In this document: piece after piece, positions 7,438 to 40,740 of the stretch
Layout of the letters: each line of letters begins with the position of its first letter
Numbering within the stretch: the stretch's first letter is position 1
From: Actinomycetota bacterium
GTDB lineage: Bacteria > Actinomycetota > Acidimicrobiia > Acidimicrobiales > GCA-2861595
Assembly (NCBI GenBank): GCA_052387235.1
Contig: JBQTJJ010000096.1
Location: forward strand, 1-53,743
DNA: 53,743 bases
Direction of reading: 5' to 3'
The notes under the pieces: model-generated
What the model was told of the DNA's origin: nothing
Seen by the model: only the letters and a program-made list of their open reading frames with translations
The model's database searches: none
Made by a program: the position numbers and the translations under genes

Positions 7438-7466
7438 TCAAGTTCCGGGCGCCGGCGCGCCGAAAC
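7438..7466 (+). promoter_or_regulatory. candidate sigma-28 (FliA/WhiG)-type promoter TCAAGTTC-N13-GCCGAAAC
   Basis: It resembles TAAAGTTT-N11-GCCGATAA. The same motif recurs at 39392-39419, upstream of the second riboswitch. Confidence 0.4.
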
Positions 7467-7473
7467 ACTTCCC

Positions 7474-7580
7474 AACGGAACACCCACGAAACGGCAAAGC
7501 CGGGGAAACCCGGTGACGCAAAGCCACGGACCTCACGGAGCTTCACCGCTCGCAAGGCAGCCGGGCTACCGAACGGGGGC
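7474..7580 (+). promoter_or_regulatory. c-di-GMP-I (GEMM-I) riboswitch aptamer
   Basis: The sequence reads ACGGCAAAGCC-GGG-GAAA-CCC-GGU-GACGCAAAGCCACGG...CAGCCGGGCUACCGAACG. This matches the remembered GEMM-I core (GGCAAACC, a GNRA-capped stem, GGGACGCAAAGCC, ...AGCGGGGUUACCGA of Vc2). Confidence 0.8.
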
Positions 7581-7584
7581 GCAG

Positions 7585-7628
7585 TTGCCTCCCAGTGGGC
7601 TGGATGGCGGAAACGCCTGGGGAGGCAA
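7585..7628 (+). promoter_or_regulatory. Shine-Dalgarno-sequestering hairpin (expression platform)
   Basis: TTGCCTCCC (7585-7593) is the exact reverse complement of GGGAGGCAA (7620-7628). The latter contains the RBS of the ATG at 7634. An inner GGCG-GAAA-CGCC stem-loop lies at 7606-7617. Confidence 0.6.
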
Positions 7629-7633
7629 TTTCG

Positions 7634-8485
7634 ATGGCACGTGCCCGCAAGGTCCTCGGTTCGATCGTCGTGGCCCTGCTCGCTCTCACCGTCGTCCTGG
7701 CGCAGCCCGCCTCGGCCGACGACGCCGGCGACGAGGGTGCCTTCCTCGTCAAGCTGAACGACCTGCGGGCCTCCAAGGGCCTCGGCAGCCTCGCCCCCAA
7801 CGGCGCGCTCACCTCCGTGGCCCGGACCTGGTCGGCCGGCATGGCCGCCGCCGGCTCGATCTCCCACAACCAGAACCTGGCCGCCCAGGCCCCGTCGGAG
7901 TGGGCCCGGCTGGGTGAGAACGTGGGCATGGGCATGGACGTCCAGGGCCTGCACGACGCCTTCGTGAACAGCCCCGCCCACTACAAGAACATGGTCGACG
8001 GCGCCTTCACCTCGGTCGGCATCGGCGTGGTCCGCGACGGCGGCGGCAAGATCTTCGTCACCGTCAACTTCATGACCTCCAAGGCTGCGCCGGCCCCCGC
8101 GCCGGCCCCCGCCCCCGTCGCCCAGGCCGCGCCGGCCCCCGCTCCGGCCCCCGCCCCCGCCCCCGCCCCGGCGCCGGCCCGCCCCGCCCCCGTCGCGGCC
8201 CCGGCCCCCGTCCCCGCCGCACCGGCTCCGGTGGAGCCCGTGGCCGAGCCGGCCCCCGCCGCCGCCCCCGTGGCCGCCGAGCCGGCCCCGGTGGCCCCGG
8301 CCGCCGCCCCGGTCACGTCGCCGGCCCGCCGCACCGCCATGGTGACCCCGGCCGCCTCGACCGACGGCTCCCCCCGGACGGCCCTCGCCCTGGTGGGCCT
8401 CGGCCTGGTCCTCACGATGCTGGCCTCCGGCCTGGTGATCCCCCGCCGCCGCCGGGCCCAGGCGCCCGCCCTGGCCCGCCGGTAG
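7634..8485 (+). CDS. secreted, membrane-anchored CAP/SCP (PR-1-like) domain protein with Pro/Ala-rich linker
   Basis: Track ORF 7595..8485 was trimmed to the ATG at 7634. It has a signal peptide (LLALTVVLAQPASA). CAP-like motifs are present (LNDLRASKGL...SHNQNL...GENVGMG...NSPAHYKNM). A PA-rich linker follows, then a C-terminal TM segment and RRRR. Confidence 0.75.
   Translation: MARARKVLGSIVVALLALTVVLAQPASADDAGDEGAFLVKLNDLRASKGLGSLAPNGALTSVARTWSAGMAAAGSISHNQNLAAQAPSEWARLGENVGMGMDVQGLHDAFVNSPAHYKNMVDGAFTSVGIGVVRDGGGKIFVTVNFMTSKAAPAPAPAPAPVAQAAPAPAPAPAPAPAPAPARPAPVAAPAPVPAAPAPVEPVAEPAPAAAPVAAEPAPVAPAAAPVTSPARRTAMVTPAASTDGSPRTALALVGLGLVLTMLASGLVIPRRRRAQAPALARR
8084..8322 (+). repeat. low-complexity coding repeat (Pro-Ala linker, GCC/CCC/GCG-rich)
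   Basis: It translates to [36 protein letters not shown]... and lies inside the CAP-domain gene. Confidence 0.8.
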
Positions 8486-13022: not shown

Positions 13023-15863
13023 TCAGGCCGGTGGCACGCGGACCACCATGATCGCCATGTCGTCGTCGGGCGCGCCGTCCACGAAGTCGGTCGCGGCCTC
13101 CTCCACCCGCTCGGCCACGGCTGCGGCACCGGCGTCGCCGATGCCGGCGAGCACGGCGGCGATGCCCTCGTCGCCGAACTGGCGCCGGCCCCGGTGGCGC
13201 TCGGTGATGCCGTCGGTGAAGGCCACCAGGAGGTCGCCGGGGCCCAGGTGCACCTCCACCTCGGTGAGGGCGACGTCCTCCAGCAGGCCCAGGAGGTCGC
13301 CCGGCACGCCCACGGTCTCCACCGAGCCGTCCCGGCGCCGGACCAGCGGGCACGGGTGGCCGGCGGTGCAGACGGTGGCCCGCACCCCGTCGCCCTCCCG
13401 GTAGAGGGAGATGGCCACGACGGTGCAGAAGCGGGGCTCGAGGTGCCAGGCCGGCCCCTGGGCGGCGGCCTCGTCGGCCGAGGCCCGCAGGAGCAGGTCG
13501 TTGAGGTGGTGGAGCACGGCACCCGGCGACGGGTCGCCCAGGGCCCGCGACCGGATGGTGTGGCGGGCCAGGCCGGTGACGGCGGCCGCTTCCACGCCCT
13601 TGCCGCACACGTCGCCGACGGCCACGAACCAGCCCGACCCGGTGGCGAAGACGTCGAAGAAGTCCCCGCCCACGTCGAGGCCCTCGCCGGCGGCCACGTA
13701 GCGCCCGCCGAACTCGACGCCGTCGGCGGACGGCAGCACGGGCGGCAGCAGGCTGGCCTGCAGGGCCCGGGCCACGTGGCTGCGCTCGGTGAACAGCTGG
13801 GCGTTGGCGACGGCGCCGCCGGCCCGCTCGGCCAGGTCCTGGGCCAGGGAGAAGTCCGCCTCGGAGATCACCCGTCCCTGCTCGTTGGCCATGGCCATGG
13901 CGCCCACCACCCTCCCGCCGGCCCGCAGGGCCACCACCATGGCCGAGCCCAGGCCGAGCGTCCGCAGCAGCCGGGCGTGCTCGGCGTCGCGGGCCACGGC
14001 GTCGAGCAGCTCGGGCGCCACGACCTGGAACAGGATCGGCTCGCCCGTGGCCAGGCAGGAGCCGAGGCCGGGGTCGCCGACCTGGACGGGCCAGCGCCGG
14101 TGCAGCTCGCAGGCCAGCTCCCGCTTGGCGGGGTCGGCGTGCTCGGCCGTGACGAACACGGGGCGCCCGTCCTCGACGAGGTGGATGGAGCACCAGTCGG
14201 CCAGGCGGGGGACCACCAGCGCGGCCAGGCGGTGGAGGGTCTGGGAGACCTCGAGCGAGGCGTTGAGGAGCGCCGACGCCTCGGCCAGGAAGGCGAAGCG
14301 CTCGTGGTCGCGGCGCTCGGACTCGTGGAGCCGGGCCCGGTCCAGGGCCTGGGCCGCCTGGGTGGCGAGGGCGGTGAGGAAGGCCCGGTCGGCGGCGGGG
14401 AACTCCTGGGACTGGCGGAACCCGACGGCCACGGCGCCCAGCACCCGCCCGGGCTCCGGCTCGAGGGGGAGGATGGCGGTGGCCTTGCGCTCCGCCGCGA
14501 ACCGGCTGAACACGGGATAGCGCTCGTCGCACTCCTCGGCCGAGTGGAGGTAGACGGCCCGGCCGGTGCGGATGGACTCGCTGGCGGGCACGTCGTCCGA
14601 GAGGGCGAAGCGACCCCAGCGCCGCTCGACCTCGGACGAGTAGCCCACGGCCCGGAGGATCTCCACCGTCTCGCCGTCCGGCTGGAGGAGGCAGAACGAG
14701 CCGGTGGCGGCGCCGAGCAGCGCCAGGCCGCGGCCCAGGATCACGTCGGCCACCTGCAGCGAGTCGACGGCCCGGGACAGCCCGGCCGTGACCTCCTGGA
14801 GGCCCGCCAGCCGGGCCGCGGCCTGCTCGGCCACGGTGCGGGCCGTGCGCTCGGTGGCCAGCACCTCGTCGTCGGCCCGGCGCTGCGGAGGGCCCGCGGC
14901 CGCCGCGGGTGGCGACAGCGGGAACGGGCAGGGCCGGGGGGCCGACCCGTTGACCTGGCGCTCCACCTCGCCCGCGAACCAGCGGCGGTAGGCGCTCAGC
15001 TCGTCGGACGGCGCCAGGCTGAGGAGCGCGCCGCGGCGGCAGAAGGTGGCCACCTGCTCCAGCACGGACGTGAGGTGCCACAGGTCGGGGACGAGGTCCG
15101 GGGGGAGGCCGAGGCTGACGTCCATGAGGCGGTGGCCGGCGGCGGCGGCCCGGTGGGTGGCCTCGCGGACCGCCAGCCTGGCATCGGCGTGGCGCTCCAG
15201 CACCTCCTCGACCAGCCGGATCAGCGGGGTCGGCACGGTGTAGGCGATGTCCTGGTCGGCGAGGGTGAGCACCTGGAACTCGCGCACCAGGTCGTCGAGG
15301 TTGAGGTCGCTGGCCAGGGCGAGGCGCACCGGGACGGCCACCAGGCGGACGGGGACGATGCCGGCGCCGGTGGCCGGCGCCCGGCGCTCGTTGGCCCGGT
15401 GCTCGGTGCCGTCCGGCCCGCCGGTGGCCACCTCCATCCACACCGTCTTGCCGGCGTCGGTGGTGTCCACGCCCCAGCGGTCGGCCACGGACGAGACCAC
15501 GAGCAGGCCCCGGCCGGTCATGCTCTCCACGTCGAGGACCTCGTCGACGGACGCCGGCCGGCCCTGGCCGGCGCCGTCGGCCAGGGCCGCGTGCCAGGGC
15601 AGGCTCACCTCCCGTGGGCTCTCGTCCCGCACCTCGGCCCGGACGCCGGCGCCCCGCCGCTCGAGCACCACCTGGAGGTCGGTGCGGGCATGGAGCACGG
15701 CGTTGGCGACCAGCTCGGAGACGCCGAGGGCGACGTCGTCGGCCAGCGCCTCCAGGCCCCACGAGACGAGCACCTCCCGGACGGCGCGCCGGGCCCGGGC
15801 CGCGCTGGCCAGCTCCGGGGCCAGCCGGACCGACGTGGTGCCAGGAACTCCCCCCGGGTGCAC
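13023..15863 (-). CDS. OsaC-like multidomain regulator: N-terminal RsbW-type HATPase kinase, unknown region, two GAF domains, C-terminal PP2C/SpoIIE phosphatase
   Basis: Track ORF 13023..15980. The N-terminus ARRAVREVLVSWGL...ELVANAVLHA...GRGLLVVSSVADRWG is anti-sigma-kinase-like. The C-terminus GGDFFDV...GDVCGKGVEAA...FTDGITE...DDDMAIMVVR is PP2C-like. The start is uncertain: GTG at 15863 is preferred, with alternatives at 15953 and 15980. Confidence 0.8.
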   Translation of the reverse strand: MHPGGVPGTTSVRLAPELASAARARRAVREVLVSWGLEALADDVALGVSELVANAVLHARTDLQVVLERRGAGVRAEVRDESPREVSLPWHAALADGAGQGRPASVDEVLDVESMTGRGLLVVSSVADRWGVDTTDAGKTVWMEVATGGPDGTEHRANERRAPATGAGIVPVRLVAVPVRLALASDLNLDDLVREFQVLTLADQDIAYTVPTPLIRLVEEVLERHADARLAVREATHRAAAAGHRLMDVSLGLPPDLVPDLWHLTSVLEQVATFCRRGALLSLAPSDELSAYRRWFAGEVERQVNGSAPRPCPFPLSPPAAAAGPPQRRADDEVLATERTARTVAEQAAARLAGLQEVTAGLSRAVDSLQVADVILGRGLALLGAATGSFCLLQPDGETVEILRAVGYSSEVERRWGRFALSDDVPASESIRTGRAVYLHSAEECDERYPVFSRFAAERKATAILPLEPEPGRVLGAVAVGFRQSQEFPAADRAFLTALATQAAQALDRARLHESERRDHERFAFLAEASALLNASLEVSQTLHRLAALVVPRLADWCSIHLVEDGRPVFVTAEHADPAKRELACELHRRWPVQVGDPGLGSCLATGEPILFQVVAPELLDAVARDAEHARLLRTLGLGSAMVVALRAGGRVVGAMAMANEQGRVISEADFSLAQDLAERAGGAVANAQLFTERSHVARALQASLLPPVLPSADGVEFGGRYVAAGEGLDVGGDFFDVFATGSGWFVAVGDVCGKGVEAAAVTGLARHTIRSRALGDPSPGAVLHHLNDLLLRASADEAAAQGPAWHLEPRFCTVVAISLYREGDGVRATVCTAGHPCPLVRRRDGSVETVGVPGDLLGLLEDVALTEVEVHLGPGDLLVAFTDGITERHRGRRQFGDEGIAAVLAGIGDAGAAAVAERVEEAATDFVDGAPDDDMAIMVVRVPPA

Positions 15864-15951
15864 CCGCCAATTGTGCCGACCGCACCGGGCGCGGAGCGAG
15901 TCGGGCCGGGAAACCGGTTGCGCGCCGGCCCGGCCCGGACGACGCTGGGGC

Positions 15952-16094
15952 ATGCCCGCCGGCGCCCTCGACGTGGCCATCCGCCGGGCGCGGGTGGACG
16001 ACGTGGCGGCGGTGGTCGAGCTGTCGGCCGCCGTGGCAGCCGAGGGGCGCTGGATAGGCCGGGAGCAGGTGGACCCTGCCGAGCGCCGTAGCGC
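15952..16094 (+). pseudogene. possible remnant of a GNAT acetyltransferase N-terminus
   Basis: MPAGALDVAIRRARVDDVAAVVELSAAVAAEGRWIGREQVDPAERR looks like a GNAT N-terminus. Past 16095 the frame degenerates into S/R-rich sequence antisense to mobA. Confidence 0.25.
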
Positions 16095-25366: not shown

Positions 25367-26854
25367 CTACCCGGGCGGGGGAGCCACCGCGCCGTCACCG
25401 TCCACCGCTTCGGTGACCACCTCCGAGGCCGCCTCGGCCCCGGCCGCCTCGGCGCCGGCCGCGGCCTGGGCGCCGGCCGACGTGAGCGCCGTGGCCTCGT
25501 CCGCCGGAGCGGGGCCGGTGGGCGGGCTGCTCGGGAGCTGGCATCCGAGCTGGACGCCGAAGACACGGAAGCTGGGGCAGGTGGCGAGGCCGGCGGTGAG
25601 GTCGGCCGTCACCGACACGGTCGCCATGTCGACGTTGACGTCTCCCCGGGCCAGGCCCTCCAGCTCGGCCGGGTCGGGCGGCTCCAGCTCGGGAAGGGCG
25701 TCGGGCAGGGCGGTCACGGCGTCGGCGATGCCGGTGGCGGCCCTGGCGCCCTCGGCCACCAGTGCCGCCGCCAGGTCGACCGGCGCCCCGTCGGGCCCGG
25801 CCGAGGCCGCGGCGCTGAAGGTGGCGTGGGATCCCGGGGGAGCGGCGGAACCGCGACCGTTGAGGTTGACGGCGCCCACGCCCACGAAGCCCGCCACCAG
25901 CAGGGCCACCGATGCCACCGAGGTGACGAAGGGGGTGGGCAGGACGACCGCAGCCCCGATGCCGACCCCGATGGGCGCGGCCGCGCCCGTGGCCGCGGCG
26001 GCGCCCGAGGTGGCGGTGGTGGTGAGGCCGGTTGAGGTGGCGCCGGCCGAGGCCGAGGCGGTGGTGGAGAGCTGCCACTTCCCGACGACCAGAGCGGCCA
26101 GCCCGGCCGGCAGCGGCAGCACGGCCCGGCGAAGACCGGGGGCCACGTCGTCCAGCTCGGCCAGCCGGGACCGGCAGGGATCGCAGCCGGCGAGATGCTG
26201 GTCGACCTTGGAGATGTCGCGCGGGGACAGGGCCCCGGCGGCGTAGGCACCGAGCCGGTTCACCGTCTCCCGGCAGACCGCCCCCACCTCGCTCTGGCGC
26301 AGGTGGGCCTGGAGGTACCGCTGTCGCAGCCCCGCTCGGGCCCGCACCGCCAGCTGGGCCACGCCGTTGGCCGACACCCCGAGCAGGCCGGCCACCTCGC
26401 GTGGGGGGATCCCCTCCACCTCGGTGAGCCACAGGACGGACCGCCAGCGCTCGGGCAGGCTCCGGAACGCGCGGGCCACCAGCAGGGCGTCCGTGTCGGC
26501 CACCATCAGCTCGGACGGCTCGTTGCCCAGCACCGACCAGTCGTACTGGTCCCGGGGGTCGGTGGGCCGCACCCGGCCGCCCCGCCGCAGCGCGTCGATG
26601 GCGGCGTTGCGCACCGCTGCCAGCAGGTAGGGGAGGAAGTAGTCGGCGGCGTGGAGCCGGTCGGGGAGGGCCTGGAACACCCGGGTGAACGCGTCGCTGA
26701 CGGCGTCCGCGGCGTCGTCGGGATTGGCGGTGACGGCCAGGGCCATGCGCCAGGCCGCCTCGGCGTGGCGGCGGTACAGGGCCTCGAACGCCTCGAGGTC
26801 GCCGGCGCCGGCGCGGCCCGCGAGATCGGCGTCAGTCGCCTCGTCCTGCACCAT
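25367..26854 (-). CDS. ECF sigma factor fused to zf-HC2 (ZAS) anti-sigma domain, TM segment and Ala/Gly/Thr-rich extracytoplasmic tail
   Basis: Track ORF 25367..26875; I prefer the ATG at 26854 (GAGGG 6 nt upstream). Sigma region 2 is AFEALYRRHAEAAWRMA...DAFTRVF. Region 4 is ERWRSVLWLTEVEGIPPREVAGLLGVSANGVAQLAVRAR. It is followed by C-x24-H-x3-C-x2-C (CRETV...DQHLAGCDPC) and a hydrophobic segment. Confidence 0.8.
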   Translation of the reverse strand: MVQDEATDADLAGRAGAGDLEAFEALYRRHAEAAWRMALAVTANPDDAADAVSDAFTRVFQALPDRLHAADYFLPYLLAAVRNAAIDALRRGGRVRPTDPRDQYDWSVLGNEPSELMVADTDALLVARAFRSLPERWRSVLWLTEVEGIPPREVAGLLGVSANGVAQLAVRARAGLRQRYLQAHLRQSEVGAVCRETVNRLGAYAAGALSPRDISKVDQHLAGCDPCRSRLAELDDVAPGLRRAVLPLPAGLAALVVGKWQLSTTASASAGATSTGLTTTATSGAAAATGAAAPIGVGIGAAVVLPTPFVTSVASVALLVAGFVGVGAVNLNGRGSAAPPGSHATFSAAASAGPDGAPVDLAAALVAEGARAATGIADAVTALPDALPELEPPDPAELEGLARGDVNVDMATVSVTADLTAGLATCPSFRVFGVQLGCQLPSSPPTGPAPADEATALTSAGAQAAAGAEAAGAEAASEVVTEAVDGDGAVAPPPG

Positions 26855-27040
26855 CGCCTGCCCTCGATGCCGCATTCTGCACGTCGCTCCGGTGGGCCCG
26901 ATCCCTCACCCTTTGTGGTGTTCTTGCCAGCGTACCGGGGCCCGACCGAAAAGGCACCACCCAGGGAGACATTTCTCCCAGCGCCTGGGGCGCGCCGGCA
27001 GGGATCGTCTGCCCGGCGCGGGCAGGTCCCAAACCCCTTG

Positions 27041-39274: not shown

Positions 39275-39391
39275 CGTGGATCTCGGCCTCTGCCCACGGG
39301 TCTCACGCGCTCGGAGCAACGTCCTGCCCGTTCGGCGGGACCGTCGGATTCGGGACTGACGGCCCTACCACCGAAATGTGGCCGGAAGCGG

Positions 39392-39419
39392 TCAAGTTCC
39401 GGCGCGGCGGTGCCGATCA
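39392..39419 (+). promoter_or_regulatory. candidate sigma-28 (FliA/WhiG)-type promoter TCAAGTTC-N12-GCCGATCA
   Basis: The same motif occurs at 7438-7466. It sits about 8 nt upstream of the start of the second GEMM-I aptamer. Confidence 0.4.
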
Positions 39420-39426
39420 GACGGGG

Positions 39427-39503
39427 TCAGCGAAAACGGCAAACCCGTCGCAAGGCGGGGACGCAAAGCCACGGGACCCACGCGGTCAGCCGGGCTACCG
39501 AAC
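39427..39503 (+). promoter_or_regulatory. c-di-GMP-I (GEMM-I) riboswitch aptamer
   Basis: The sequence reads ACGGCAAACC-CGUC-GCAA-GGCG-GGGACGCAAAGCCACGGGACCCACGCGGUCAGCCGGGCUACCGAACG. It has a GNRA-capped P1b stem, an exact GACGCAAAGCC core and an AGCCGGGCUACCGA 3' element. It ends directly at the SD GAGGAG (39504-39509). Confidence 0.85.
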
Positions 39504-39517
39504 GAGGAGCAACCACG

Positions 39518-39688
39518 ATGGTTGACGCGCCGAGCGCGCCCTTCGGCGGCGTGCGCCGCCTGGCGACGCGCCTGTTCAACTCCGAGCACCACACCGATGA
39601 GTCGGCGTTCGCATGGCTGTGTGACGACCCGGTCTTCGCTGTGGCGGCGGCCGGCCTGTCGCCGCGGGTGCGTCCCGGTCGGCCCTGA
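39518..39688 (+). CDS. small hypothetical protein (56 aa) downstream of the riboswitch
   Basis: The ATG lies 8 nt after GAGGAG. The product is MVDAPSAPFGGVRRLATRLFNSEHHTDESAFAWLCDDPVFAVAAAGLSPRVRPGRP. No motif is recognised. It is followed by an ACCTGCCGG...CCGGCAGGT hairpin. Confidence 0.45.
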   Translation: MVDAPSAPFGGVRRLATRLFNSEHHTDESAFAWLCDDPVFAVAAAGLSPRVRPGRP

Positions 39689-39796
39689 CGGGTACCTGCC
39701 GGGTCGCCGGGTCGCCGGCCGACCGCGCCGGCAGGTAGCGGGACCGGTCGCCAGGGCCACCAGCTCCGCTACCACGAGGGGCCGCCCCCGGGTGCG

Positions 39797-40681
39797 TCAC
39801 GAGGCGTCGGAGCCGGCCCGGCCGCGGGCCTCGACGGCGGCGTCGGCCGCCTTGCCGGCGGCCTCCCGCGCGGTGGCGGCGGTGCGCTCTGCGTCGTCAA
39901 GCTCGGCAGCCAGCTTCTCGGCCTTGCGGGCGGCGCGCTCGGCTTCGGCCGCGGCCGAGGCTGCGGCGGAGCGGAGCTCCTCCGCCCGCCGCTCGGCCTG
40001 GGTGGCCGAGCGCTCGGTCCGCCGGGCGTGGTGCTCGGCCTCGTCCGCCTCGGCCCGCCGGCGCCGGCGGGCCAGCTCGTCGCCCGGGTCGGCCCCGGCC
40101 GCCGGCGGTGCGTCCCCGGCCGGCTCGGCCCTCGGGCTCGCGGTCGTGCGCGCCGGCGCCGGCGGCCGGGCCGCGGTCGGCAGGGAGAAGCCTTCCAGGC
40201 CGAAGCCGGGCGCCTGGTGGTCGGCGTCGAGCACCCCGGCCAGGAGGGGACCGGCCACGGCCGGGTCCACCACGGCGGCACGCAGGGTGGCGGCCATGCG
40301 CTGGCGGGCGGCGTCGCCCCCGGCCTTCCCGGCTGCCTCCAGCTGCGACGAGGCGGCGGCGGTGACCGCGTCGACCGCCTTCCGCTCGGCCGCCTGGGCC
40401 GGCCGCAGCCCGGAGGCGTCGCCCCGAAGGGCCTGCTCCGTGGCCGCCCGCAGGTCCCGGCCGGCGTCGAGCACCGTCTCGACCAGCGCGGGCCGGTCCC
40501 GGGCCACCAGGTTCAGGGCCCAGGCGGTTGCGGGCGGCCGGCGCAGCCTGGCCACCACCGCCGCCTCCTCCCGCTGCTTCCCGGCCCGCAGCTCCCTGAC
40601 CAGCGCGTCGCGGGCGGCGGTGAACTCCTCGGGCTGGAGGGAGTAGAGGTCCCGGGCCCGGTCGGGCACGGCGTCGGCCAT
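39797..40681 (-). CDS. hypothetical protein with Ala/Arg/Glu-rich coiled-coil-like C-terminus
   Basis: Track ORF 39797..40711 was trimmed to the ATG at 40681 (MADAVPDRARDLYSLQPEEFTAARDALVRELR...). Confidence 0.6.
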   Translation of the reverse strand: MADAVPDRARDLYSLQPEEFTAARDALVRELRAGKQREEAAVVARLRRPPATAWALNLVARDRPALVETVLDAGRDLRAATEQALRGDASGLRPAQAAERKAVDAVTAAASSQLEAAGKAGGDAARQRMAATLRAAVVDPAVAGPLLAGVLDADHQAPGFGLEGFSLPTAARPPAPARTTASPRAEPAGDAPPAAGADPGDELARRRRRAEADEAEHHARRTERSATQAERRAEELRSAAASAAAEAERAARKAEKLAAELDDAERTAATAREAAGKAADAAVEARGRAGSDAS

Positions 40682-40740
40682 GCGCCATTCTCGCCGGACC
40701 GGGCGGCGCAACCGCGCCCGGTCTCGCGGGAGCCGCCGTA

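Follow-up and report, generated by a model that had tools for sequence, protein, structure and literature searches.

A conserved small-protein gene behind a c-di-GMP-I riboswitch and a predicted WhiG-type promoter in Acidimicrobiia

The riboswitch locus and its aptamer

The window analyzed here is a stretch of 53,743 nucleotides (nt) with a G + C content of 74%, which comprises positions 1 to 53,743 of contig JBQTJJ010000096.1 (GenBank assembly GCA_052387235.1) of an actinobacterium affiliated with the Acidimicrobiales in the class Acidimicrobiia. A search of the whole window with cmscan against Rfam 15 retrieved only two matches, both of which are riboswitches of class I for cyclic di-GMP (c-di-GMP). 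The second of these is the subject of this analysis: its aptamer is preceded by a predicted promoter of the WhiG/sigma-28 type and followed at a short distance by an open reading frame (ORF) for a protein of 56 amino acids (aa), behind which lie a hairpin, a single repeat unit, and a convergent gene (Table 1). A sequence-only reading of this region had already described it as a second c-di-GMP-I riboswitch with the 56-aa ORF as its only plausible cargo. The aptamer boundaries proposed there (39427-39503) differ by no more than 2 nt from those obtained with cmscan, and the strings quoted as its conserved parts (GGCAAACC, CGUC-GCAA-GGCG, and GGGACGCAAAGCC...AGCCGGGCUACCGA) were all found in the sequence.

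Table 1. Positions of the riboswitch unit, its immediate surroundings, and other features of the window mentioned in the text.
Feature	Position	Strand	Description
Predicted WhiG/sigma-28-type promoter	39392-39419	+	-35 TCAA(G) at 39392-39396, 15-nt spacer after the G, -10 GCCGATCA at 39412-39419
Predicted transcript start and 5' strand of extended P1 (GUCA)	39426-39429	+	from sigma-28 geometry
c-di-GMP-I-clan aptamer	39429-39503	+	RF03167 (c-di-GMP-I-GGC, clan CL00126), 70.4 bits, E 1.1e-14
Shine-Dalgarno sequence GAGGAG	39504-39509	+	adjoins 3' strand of P1
56-aa small-protein gene	39518-39688	+	ATG at 39518, stop at 39686-39688
GC-rich hairpin after the stop	39693-39737	+	-41.9 kcal/mol, z-score -1.0; candidate terminator without U tract
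43-nt hairpin-forming repeat unit	39737-39779	+	single copy, core GGTCGCCAGGGCCACC, exact core match at 39746-39761
Convergent gene	39797-40711	-	294-304 aa; GC3 0.95; homologs in Acidimicrobiales metagenome-assembled genomes
A-rich patch GAAAT	39373-39377	+	12-14 nt upstream of -35; possible UP element or activator site
Mechanical ORF	39378-40646	+	422 aa; starts inside the promoter, antisense through the convergent gene
Promoter motif of the sister unit	7438-7466	+	TCAAGTTC-N13-GCCGAAAC
First riboswitch	7483-7573	+	RF01051 (c-di-GMP-I), 69.1 bits
CAP/SCP-domain (PF00188) protein gene	7595-8485	+	296 aa; cargo of the sister unit (7438-8485)
Gene for multidomain protein	13023-15980	-	985 aa; anti-sigma-kinase-like HATPase_c_2, two GAF, and SpoIIE/PP2C phosphatase domains
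Sigma factor gene	25367-26875	-	502 aa; extracytoplasmic function (ECF) type, fused to zf-HC2 anti-sigma domain

The aptamer matches model RF03167 over its entire length (model positions 1-80 of 80) with a score above the gathering score of 59, and is thereby assigned to the c-di-GMP-I clan; a second, weaker match of the same clan that overlaps it was suppressed by cmscan. As to the proposed check for RF01051, the aptamer belongs to the expected clan, but its best model is RF03167 and not RF01051. RF03167 is also the top-scoring model at most loci of the small-protein family described below (loci are designated by L numbers), whereas RF01051 scores best at L022, L158, and L160 (60.9-66.4 bits compared to a gathering score of 35). 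The consensus sequences of the two models differ at one informative place of the core, which is GACGCAAAgCc in RF01051 and GACGCGAAgCc in RF03167. Like RF01051, the window and each of the 14 distinct family loci have GACGCAAAGCC, whereas the RF03167 consensus is GACGCGAAGCC; the A replacing the consensus G of RF03167 appears as a mismatch in the cmscan alignment of the window and occurs in 14/14 loci.

The affected position is part of the ligand-binding site. In the Vc2 riboswitch, crystal structures identified G20, A47, and C92 as nucleotides contacting the ligand, with A47 stacking between its two guanines. The equivalents of these nucleotides, which we take to be positions 39438, 39465, and 39498, are G, A, and C in all 14 distinct family loci. 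The letters "GGC" in the name of the RF03167 variant presumably denote the nucleotides G20/G47/C92, so that G47 would be the defining change. On this assumption, the sequence of the window RNA, which lacks G47, would not qualify it as the specificity variant c-di-GMP-I-GGC. Binding of c-di-GMP is expected because the G20/A47/C92 set is canonical, and the aptamer is best read as a predicted ordinary c-di-GMP binder whose higher RF03167 score is probably due to a shared periphery, consisting of the short second hairpin and the closing helix P1 of the model. Analysis of the family aptamers by RNAalifold recovered both hairpins, with one double change from G-C to A-U and several G-C/G-U changes, a covariation limited by the close relationship of the sequences.

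The small-protein family downstream of the aptamer

The Shine-Dalgarno (SD) sequence and the start codon of the 56-aa ORF were located where the sequence-only reading had placed them, and the translation is identical to the protein sequence it had given. The G + C content at third codon positions (GC3) of this ORF reaches 0.95 in its first 30 codons, a value like that of the neighboring genes, and is 0.86 for the ORF as a whole. The statement that no other ORF precedes the convergent gene holds insofar as the 56-aa ORF is the sole plausible cargo, but mechanically predicted ORFs of 49 and 422 aa start at positions 39376 and 39378 of the same strand. Both were dismissed as artefacts of the high G + C content.

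A word-indexed search with the 56-aa sequence retrieved two relatives, P0002 (75% identical) and P0003, and a profile search of 1.84 billion representative sequences added ten further matches, nine of which are small proteins of 46-135 aa. The search for homologs that had been suggested for this peptide finally yielded, in a second profile search, about 20 clusters with lengths of 46-87 aa. The homologs are 40-75% identical, and the organism names attached to them are exclusively those of metagenome-assembled genomes (MAGs) of Acidimicrobiales or Acidimicrobiia. GCA_036262515.1 and GCA_030155045.1 are among the Acidimicrobiia MAGs with the unit. They share a core at approximately residues 10-42 with the pattern xRRLxxRLF(P)-(6-10 aa)-ESA(F/I)(A/S)WLxxDP(V/I)F, and M1, A30, W33, L34, D37, P38, and F40 are invariant in the protein alignment. 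The earlier remark that the protein carries no recognizable motif is in line with the lack of any match in Pfam, NCBIfam, or the PDB, where a profile search gave only non-significant matches (ArfA, E 0.4-0.8). Two distant relatives, P0062 and P0063, have N-terminal extensions (KRQT..GTQSHG..VSRATER) that turned out to be the aptamer translated in frame, which was the first sign of the RNA lying in the same register in distant relatives.

The DNA retrieved for 13 peptide clusters and by motif matches comprised 21 loci encoding the short form of the protein, which together with the window make 22 loci with about 14 distinct sequences. An aptamer is located 14-18 nt before the ATG in 22/22 short-form loci, in five of which the contig ends inside the aptamer, so that the peptide follows a c-di-GMP-I element wherever a short form was examined, as had been asked of it. 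All loci with a complete upstream region have a clan CL00126 match above the gathering score (60.8-68.9 bits); the partial matches of L034-36, which start inside the aptamer, still exceed this score, and the last ~46 nt of the aptamer retained in L002 and L003 were recognized by eye. Each fetched locus contains one short-form copy. The small ORF is the sole constant feature downstream of the aptamer, the flanking genes being different.

The reverse does not apply: an aptamer core of 38 identical nt is found at 120 loci from many phyla, only one of which (L069, an Acidimicrobiia MAG) also encodes the peptide, which argues against the peptide being a by-product of the RNA. Likewise, when 185,579 species genomes were searched with a degenerate DNA pattern representing the peptide core, only L069 was matched; four metagenome contigs were matched in addition. 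An alignment of three peptide sequences searched against genome and metagenome contigs yielded no locus, its patterns being too specific and the tblastn threshold being strict for a query of 56 aa. An 18-mer (GGGYTACCGAACGAGGAG) occurred at 16 loci, and since a scan of the ten most plausible ones with Rfam revealed no riboswitch, these were regarded as chance matches.

One might still suppose that the ORF arose by chance behind an orphan or decaying riboswitch, as its frame stays uninterrupted over the 224 codons before its stop and the region is overlapped by many spurious ORFs. At 74% G + C, open frames mean little. Considering that the aptamer matches the complete model and that the homologs differ by a coding-type substitution pattern and always lie behind the aptamer, this explanation is barely credible. 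By the sequence evidence, the ORF is a real, conserved gene for a protein of 46-56 residues.

Evidence for its translation comes from the substitution pattern in a codon alignment of 13 sequences. None of the distinct sequences has lost the ATG, the SD, or the reading frame, and where lengths differ, they do so by whole codons. At the residues R14, E28, S29, A30, W33, L34, D37, P38, and F40, the first two codon positions show no entropy at all, while the entropy at position 3 of invariant residues is 0.8-1.5 bits (~1 bit) except for Trp and Met, which have a single codon; substitutions within the conserved residues are thus synonymous, as had been proposed for examination. In the annotated frame 41% of all pairwise differences are synonymous compared to 28% and 20% in the other frames, and the ratios of nonsynonymous to synonymous substitution rates (dN/dS) of close pairs range from 0.3 to 0.46 (window/L001, 0.38; L001/L002, 0.30; L037/L036, 0.30; L032/L026, 0.34). 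With its conserved start, SD, and frame, and with the excess of synonymous changes, the locus has the signature expected of a small gene.

This pattern also bears on the choice between a microprotein and a small RNA (sRNA), which the sequence-only reading had left undecided. If the transcript were a riboswitch-controlled sRNA with an untranslated ORF, conservation would reflect RNA sequence or structure; the short transcript of about 300 nt followed by hairpins, the low confidence of the structure prediction for the peptide (see below), and the absence of matches to known protein families would fit. However, variation in invariant codons is restricted to third positions, the excess of synonymous changes is specific to the annotated frame, SD and in-frame ATG occur at a fixed spacing in every locus, no conserved RNA helix was found in the ORF beyond a weak 4-bp contact, and long forms hold the peptide core in proteins of 87-88 aa without an aptamer. 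The sRNA explanation is therefore quite unlikely. The microprotein is favored by its homologs, by the aptamer at its constant position upstream, and by the synonymous substitutions, and positions 39518-39688 very probably represent a translated protein gene.

The long forms, which are paralogs of the short form, are encoded at L159 (3162-3428, minus strand; one of the four metagenome contigs matched by the pattern) and L162 (719-982, plus strand). They carry the core RRL..FPP..ESAI(A/S)WLxxDPVF with additional N- and C-terminal segments, neither an aptamer nor a WhiG motif is present at these two loci, and the stop codon of the long-form gene overlaps the start (ATGA) of a gene for an OmpR-family response regulator. 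Because the core also exists without a riboswitch, its sequence distribution argues for a protein module. L162 and the short-form locus L002 originate from the same sample. A link to the KdpDE-like two-component pair adjacent to the unit in the window is no more than a weak lead, since the regulator coupled to the long form is only 34% identical to that of the window, a generic similarity.

The window protein has a grand average of hydropathy (GRAVY) of -0.12 and a near-neutral isoelectric point (pI) of 6.7, whereas most family members have a GRAVY below 0 and a pI of 10-12; no hydrophobic or membrane segment was found in the window protein or the family. AlphaFold2, based on an alignment of 20 sequences, predicted three short helices with a mean local confidence (pLDDT) of 63.7 and a template modelling score (pTM) of 0.26, too low for a meaningful fold search. 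The protein is predicted to be soluble and is probably helical, and it is expected to act by binding a partner. Two more specific functional assignments were rejected. A PilZ-type c-di-GMP receptor was considered owing to the nearly invariant R14-x3-R18, but the (D/N)xSxxG motif is absent with only S29 kept, Pfam detected no PilZ domain, and 46-56 aa are too short for the fold. The idea of a precursor of a ribosomally synthesized and post-translationally modified peptide originated from a PGM1-like ATP-grasp gene near L023 and L032, which is absent in the window, L001, L022, and L028.

Promoter motif, predicted mode of control, and genomic surroundings

An alignment of the regions upstream of the aptamer revealed the arrangement T(C/A/T)AAG, exactly 15 variable nt, GCCGAT(N2), 6-7 variable nt, and then GUCA(G/A/C)CGA. 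The motif begins in the window at the first position of the span marked in the sequence-only reading (39392), where it had been left uninterpreted. Targets of the actinobacterial sigma factor WhiG2 have been searched for with the query T(A/C)AA-N16-GCCGATAA, GCCGA(TAA), at most 200 bp from the start codon (PMC12871210), and the WhiG2 target consensus equals that of flagellar sigma-28 (PMC12871210, PMC8325347). The sequence TCAA-N16-GCCGATCA in the window agrees with this consensus for WhiG/sigma-28 (FliA, SigD). The relaxed motif T(C/A/T)AA-N16-GCCGA occurs in 13/14 distinct family loci, always 20-23 nt before GGCAAA, but only in 4/118 control aptamers; for the exact published query these numbers are 7/14 and 3/118, respectively. 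Moreover, the window contains just two occurrences of the pattern TCAAGTTC-N11-14-GCCGA (7438 and 39392; 0.00 expected by chance), each of them directly upstream of one of the riboswitches, so that both riboswitch units would share a WhiG-type promoter. The sister unit has a cargo of a different kind, the gene of a CAP/SCP-domain protein (Table 1).

The GUCA(G/A/C)CGA block is invariant in all family loci and lies 8-9 nt after GCCGAT, the 6-7 nt in front of it being variable. Based on sigma-28 promoter geometry, the transcript is predicted to start at approximately position 39426, and its sequence suggests that the RNA would begin with the 5' strand of P1. Farther upstream, the A-rich patch (GAAAT or GAAAAT) recurs in the window, L001, L023/25, L031, L021, L032, and L026/L069, where it is intergenic in some loci and inside the end of the upstream gene in others. 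The window (39350-39391) and L001 (6192-6233) are near-identical in a stretch ~40-60 nt upstream of the -35 element (TTCGrGACTGACGGCCCTACCwCCGAAATGTGGCCGGAwGCGG), unlike the DNA after the ORF, which is not conserved between them; by its conservation this stretch may be a putative regulator binding site.

The anti-WhiG factor RsiG is dependent on c-di-GMP and sequesters WhiG in its ligand-bound state; it was reported in 3/4 Acidimicrobiales species (PMC8325347), and the WhiG regulon of Rubrobacter includes c-di-GMP turnover genes (PMC12871210, PMC8325347). Neither WhiG nor RsiG is encoded within the 53.7-kb window, where the only sigma factor seen is the ECF-type protein fused to zf-HC2. From the promoter sequence we infer that the unit is transcribed by a WhiG-type sigma factor and that c-di-GMP control would already take place at transcription. 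Unrelated c-di-GMP-I aptamers lie behind near-perfect sigma-28 promoters in L048 (Rubrobacter marinus; TTAAAGGTTTCTCATCGACGTGCCGATAAT) and L060 (uncultured Actinomycetes), and similar combinations of a WhiG-type promoter and a c-di-GMP riboswitch, with other cargo, may exist elsewhere in the Actinomycetota.

These elements would form a self-contained unit, in which the WhiG/sigma-28-type promoter starts an RNA that opens directly with the canonical aptamer, the 3' strand of the closing helix adjoins the SD of the small gene, and one or two GC-rich hairpins come after the stop codon. As the 14 nt between aptamer and ATG in the window leave no room for a terminator, control would have to act on translation initiation, with possible secondary effects on mRNA stability or Rho action. 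An extended P1 can be formed by 5' GUC with 3' GAC (GAG in the window, GAU in L023 and L031), and a GGAG located 0-3 nt past the closing strand of this putative helix precedes the ATG at all family loci. No conserved anti-SD helix was found by single-sequence folds or by RNAalifold of the homologs; the 4-bp contact CGGC/GCCG with the Arg-Arg codons, proposed by RNAalifold, was too weak to be accepted as an expression platform. In the proposed mechanism, the SD would be accessible by default, and the ligand would close P1 and pack the aptamer against the SD within the 30S footprint, thereby lowering initiation. Regarding the direction of the switch, shutting off of translation by c-di-GMP is slightly preferred to activation. 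An OFF switch would agree with the promoter, because WhiG would be freed from RsiG only at low c-di-GMP and the protein would be a sharply gated "low c-di-GMP" output, whereas an ON switch would produce a band-pass response.

The surroundings of the unit differ among lineages. The gene at position 39797 that the sequence-only reading had called convergent is real, as judged by its coding-type GC3 and its homologs, and contains no Pfam domain. Its homologs adjoin the unit in the window, L002, L026, L034-36, and probably L001, but are absent at L022, L023-25, L028-30, and L031, which makes it a recurrent but not a universal neighbor. Its nearest homolog in the genome collection (L020, 54% identity) was dismissed, as neither synteny nor an aptamer was found there. 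The convergent downstream neighbor is a GAF histidine kinase in L022 and an MMPL transporter in L028-30; same-strand neighbors are a fatty-acid hydroxylase gene in L023-25 (50 nt after the stop) and a short-chain dehydrogenase downstream in L031. Upstream of the unit and on the same strand, an MIase/DUF3303-like gene (PF02426, 96-99 aa) occurs in five contexts (L001 5868-6158, L023 4708-5004, L026 3266-3562, L031 3568-3867, L032 2755-3051), with an extra gene of 164-238 aa in between in L023/24 and L031, but is absent from the corresponding position in the window.

A hairpin was indeed found after the ORF, as had been claimed, but it is unremarkable and no canonical terminator, and a terminator scan of this region gave no result. 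Strong hairpins follow the stop codon in L026/L069 (21 bp), L158 (13 bp), and L022 (with a U tract), and none in L023-25. The 43-nt unit (GCGGAATCGGTCGCCAGGGCCACCGGCTCCGCGACCAGAGTTA), present once in the window, forms 3.9 tandem copies in L002 (238-405) between the peptide core and the convergent gene, where the ORF extends into the repeats and thus reaches 87 aa.

This arrangement raises the question of whether the riboswitch acts in antisense, with c-di-GMP gating read-through into the convergent gene and the small ORF being incidental. The convergent gene is at most 110 nt away in the window, the unit is likewise followed by a convergent gene in L001, L002, L026, L034-36, L022, L028-30, and L037, the hairpin after the ORF has no U tract, and an antisense orientation has been found more often for c-di-GMP riboswitches than for any other riboswitch class (PMC9943018). 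Against this stand the exchange of the convergent partner between lineages, the same-strand genes that come next in L023-25 and L031, and the strong hairpins between ORF and convergent gene in L026/L069, L158, and L022. Antisense control, which leaves the protein-level conservation of the ORF unexplained and could be a secondary effect, is thus unlikely as the primary function. Similarly, the ORF might be a leader peptide or upstream ORF through which the riboswitch would be coupled to a structural gene behind it, as could be imagined for the fatty-acid hydroxylase in L023-25, which no clear hairpin separates from the unit. As no same-strand gene follows in the window and most other loci, and as leader peptides rarely keep a 30-residue core across differing downstream genes, this explanation is highly improbable.

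Several observations weigh against the proposed unit of WhiG-type promoter, c-di-GMP-I aptamer, and translated small protein under translational control. The exact WhiG query is matched by only half of the distinct family loci, the -35 element being TTAA in five loci from four lineages and degenerate in L158. The comparison is based on only about 14 distinct and related sequences, whose pooled ratio of nonsynonymous to synonymous differences (pN/pS) is 0.61, because the linker and the C-terminal tail vary freely, and toward the end of the ORF in the window, over its final 15 codons, GC3 drops to ~0.7. On the RNA level, the predicted unpaired probability of the SD varies from 0.06 to 0.73 between homologs with inconsistent folds, RNAalifold recovers the aptamer hairpins but no switching helix, and the hairpin after the ORF is not exceptional when compared to shuffles of this GC-rich stretch (z -1.0). 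With these points taken into account, the proposed unit as a whole is still considered likely, and the same signal, c-di-GMP, probably acts on it twice, at the promoter and through the riboswitch. If the promoter assignment is true, the RsiG-WhiG switch and the riboswitch would jointly control one gene, and such double control could create an ultrasensitive off-switch or a band-pass filter.

It is tempting to place the microprotein itself in the c-di-GMP/WhiG circuit, as a FlgM-like partner of WhiG or RsiG, as a response-regulator connector, or as a minimal c-di-GMP-binding peptide that would use the invariant RRLxxR arginines and the tryptophan. Sigma release and riboswitch would then constitute a two-layer gate over a regulator of the same pathway. 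Translational coupling of the long forms to an OmpR-type regulator would be consistent with a connector, and a signaling role derived from them is a lead only; overall, a part of the protein in this circuit is rather doubtful.

Comparison with known systems

The aptamer has the two hairpins and the GNRA tetraloop (GCAA) of c-di-GMP-I (GEMM-I) RNAs such as Vc2 of Vibrio cholerae (RF01051), with which it also shares the GGCAAAC, GACGCAAAGCC, and GGGCUACCGAA cores and the position 5' of a same-strand ORF. It is unlike typical members in its very short second hairpin, its location right at the predicted 5' terminus of the transcript, the small distance of 14 nt to the ATG, and a cargo that is a 46-56-aa protein of an unannotated family. 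The RF03167 variant has the same peripheral architecture and closing P1 as the window aptamer and differs from it by the consensus G in place of A.

FlgM, the anti-sigma-28 factor, is a small, largely unstructured or helical protein of ~97 aa that is expressed from a sigma-28-dependent promoter, exerts feedback on its sigma factor, and is secreted through the flagellar apparatus. What it has in common with the family described here is a small protein under a sigma-28-type promoter; the two share no sequence similarity (no Pfam match), and a FlgM-like role is a lead only, drawn from functional analogy.

The promoter motif corresponds to the T(A/C)AA-N16-GCCGA(TAA) motif of WhiG/RsiG systems, and RsiG is reported in the Acidimicrobiales. 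A pairing of WhiG promoter and riboswitch is not mentioned for these systems, the term "riboswitch" being absent from both publications (PMC12871210, PMC8325347). A literature search on c-di-GMP, riboswitches, and WhiG gave no report of this pairing among the matches listed, and no literature linking c-di-GMP riboswitches with Acidimicrobiia was found.

In uncultured organisms, the cargo of a riboswitch is one of the few direct clues to the targets of a second messenger. The locus provides a defined candidate c-di-GMP effector for the Acidimicrobiia, a common but little-studied lineage in soil and water, and suggests that some c-di-GMP riboswitches regarded as "orphan" or "antisense" really serve small genes that have not been called.

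That a small protein would be an unusual c-di-GMP effector output, as the sequence-only reading had put it, has to be toned down in view of the CD1980.2 family of Clostridioides difficile, whose 58-aa proteins are encoded behind the c-di-GMP-I riboswitches Cdi1_6 and Cdi1_8-11 (bioRxiv 10.64898/2026.06.10.731418). These proteins are described as membrane-associated, occur in about 5-7 near-identical copies per genome, have according to the authors no homologs outside C. difficile, and are repressed by c-di-GMP via premature transcription termination (bioRxiv 10.64898/2026.06.10.731418). Both families consist of small, previously unannotated or "hypothetical" proteins of ~50-60 aa as the sole cargo of class I riboswitches. 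The hydrophobic 58-aa protein and the termination-type riboswitch of C. difficile have no counterpart at the window locus, where the protein is not hydrophobic and no terminator would fit. By description, the family in the Acidimicrobiia is set apart as hydrophilic and mostly basic, single-copy per locus, and under predicted translational control. What is new here is thus the combination of a new small-protein family, a predicted translational platform placed directly at the 5' terminus of the RNA, and c-di-GMP control that probably acts a second time, through the promoter.

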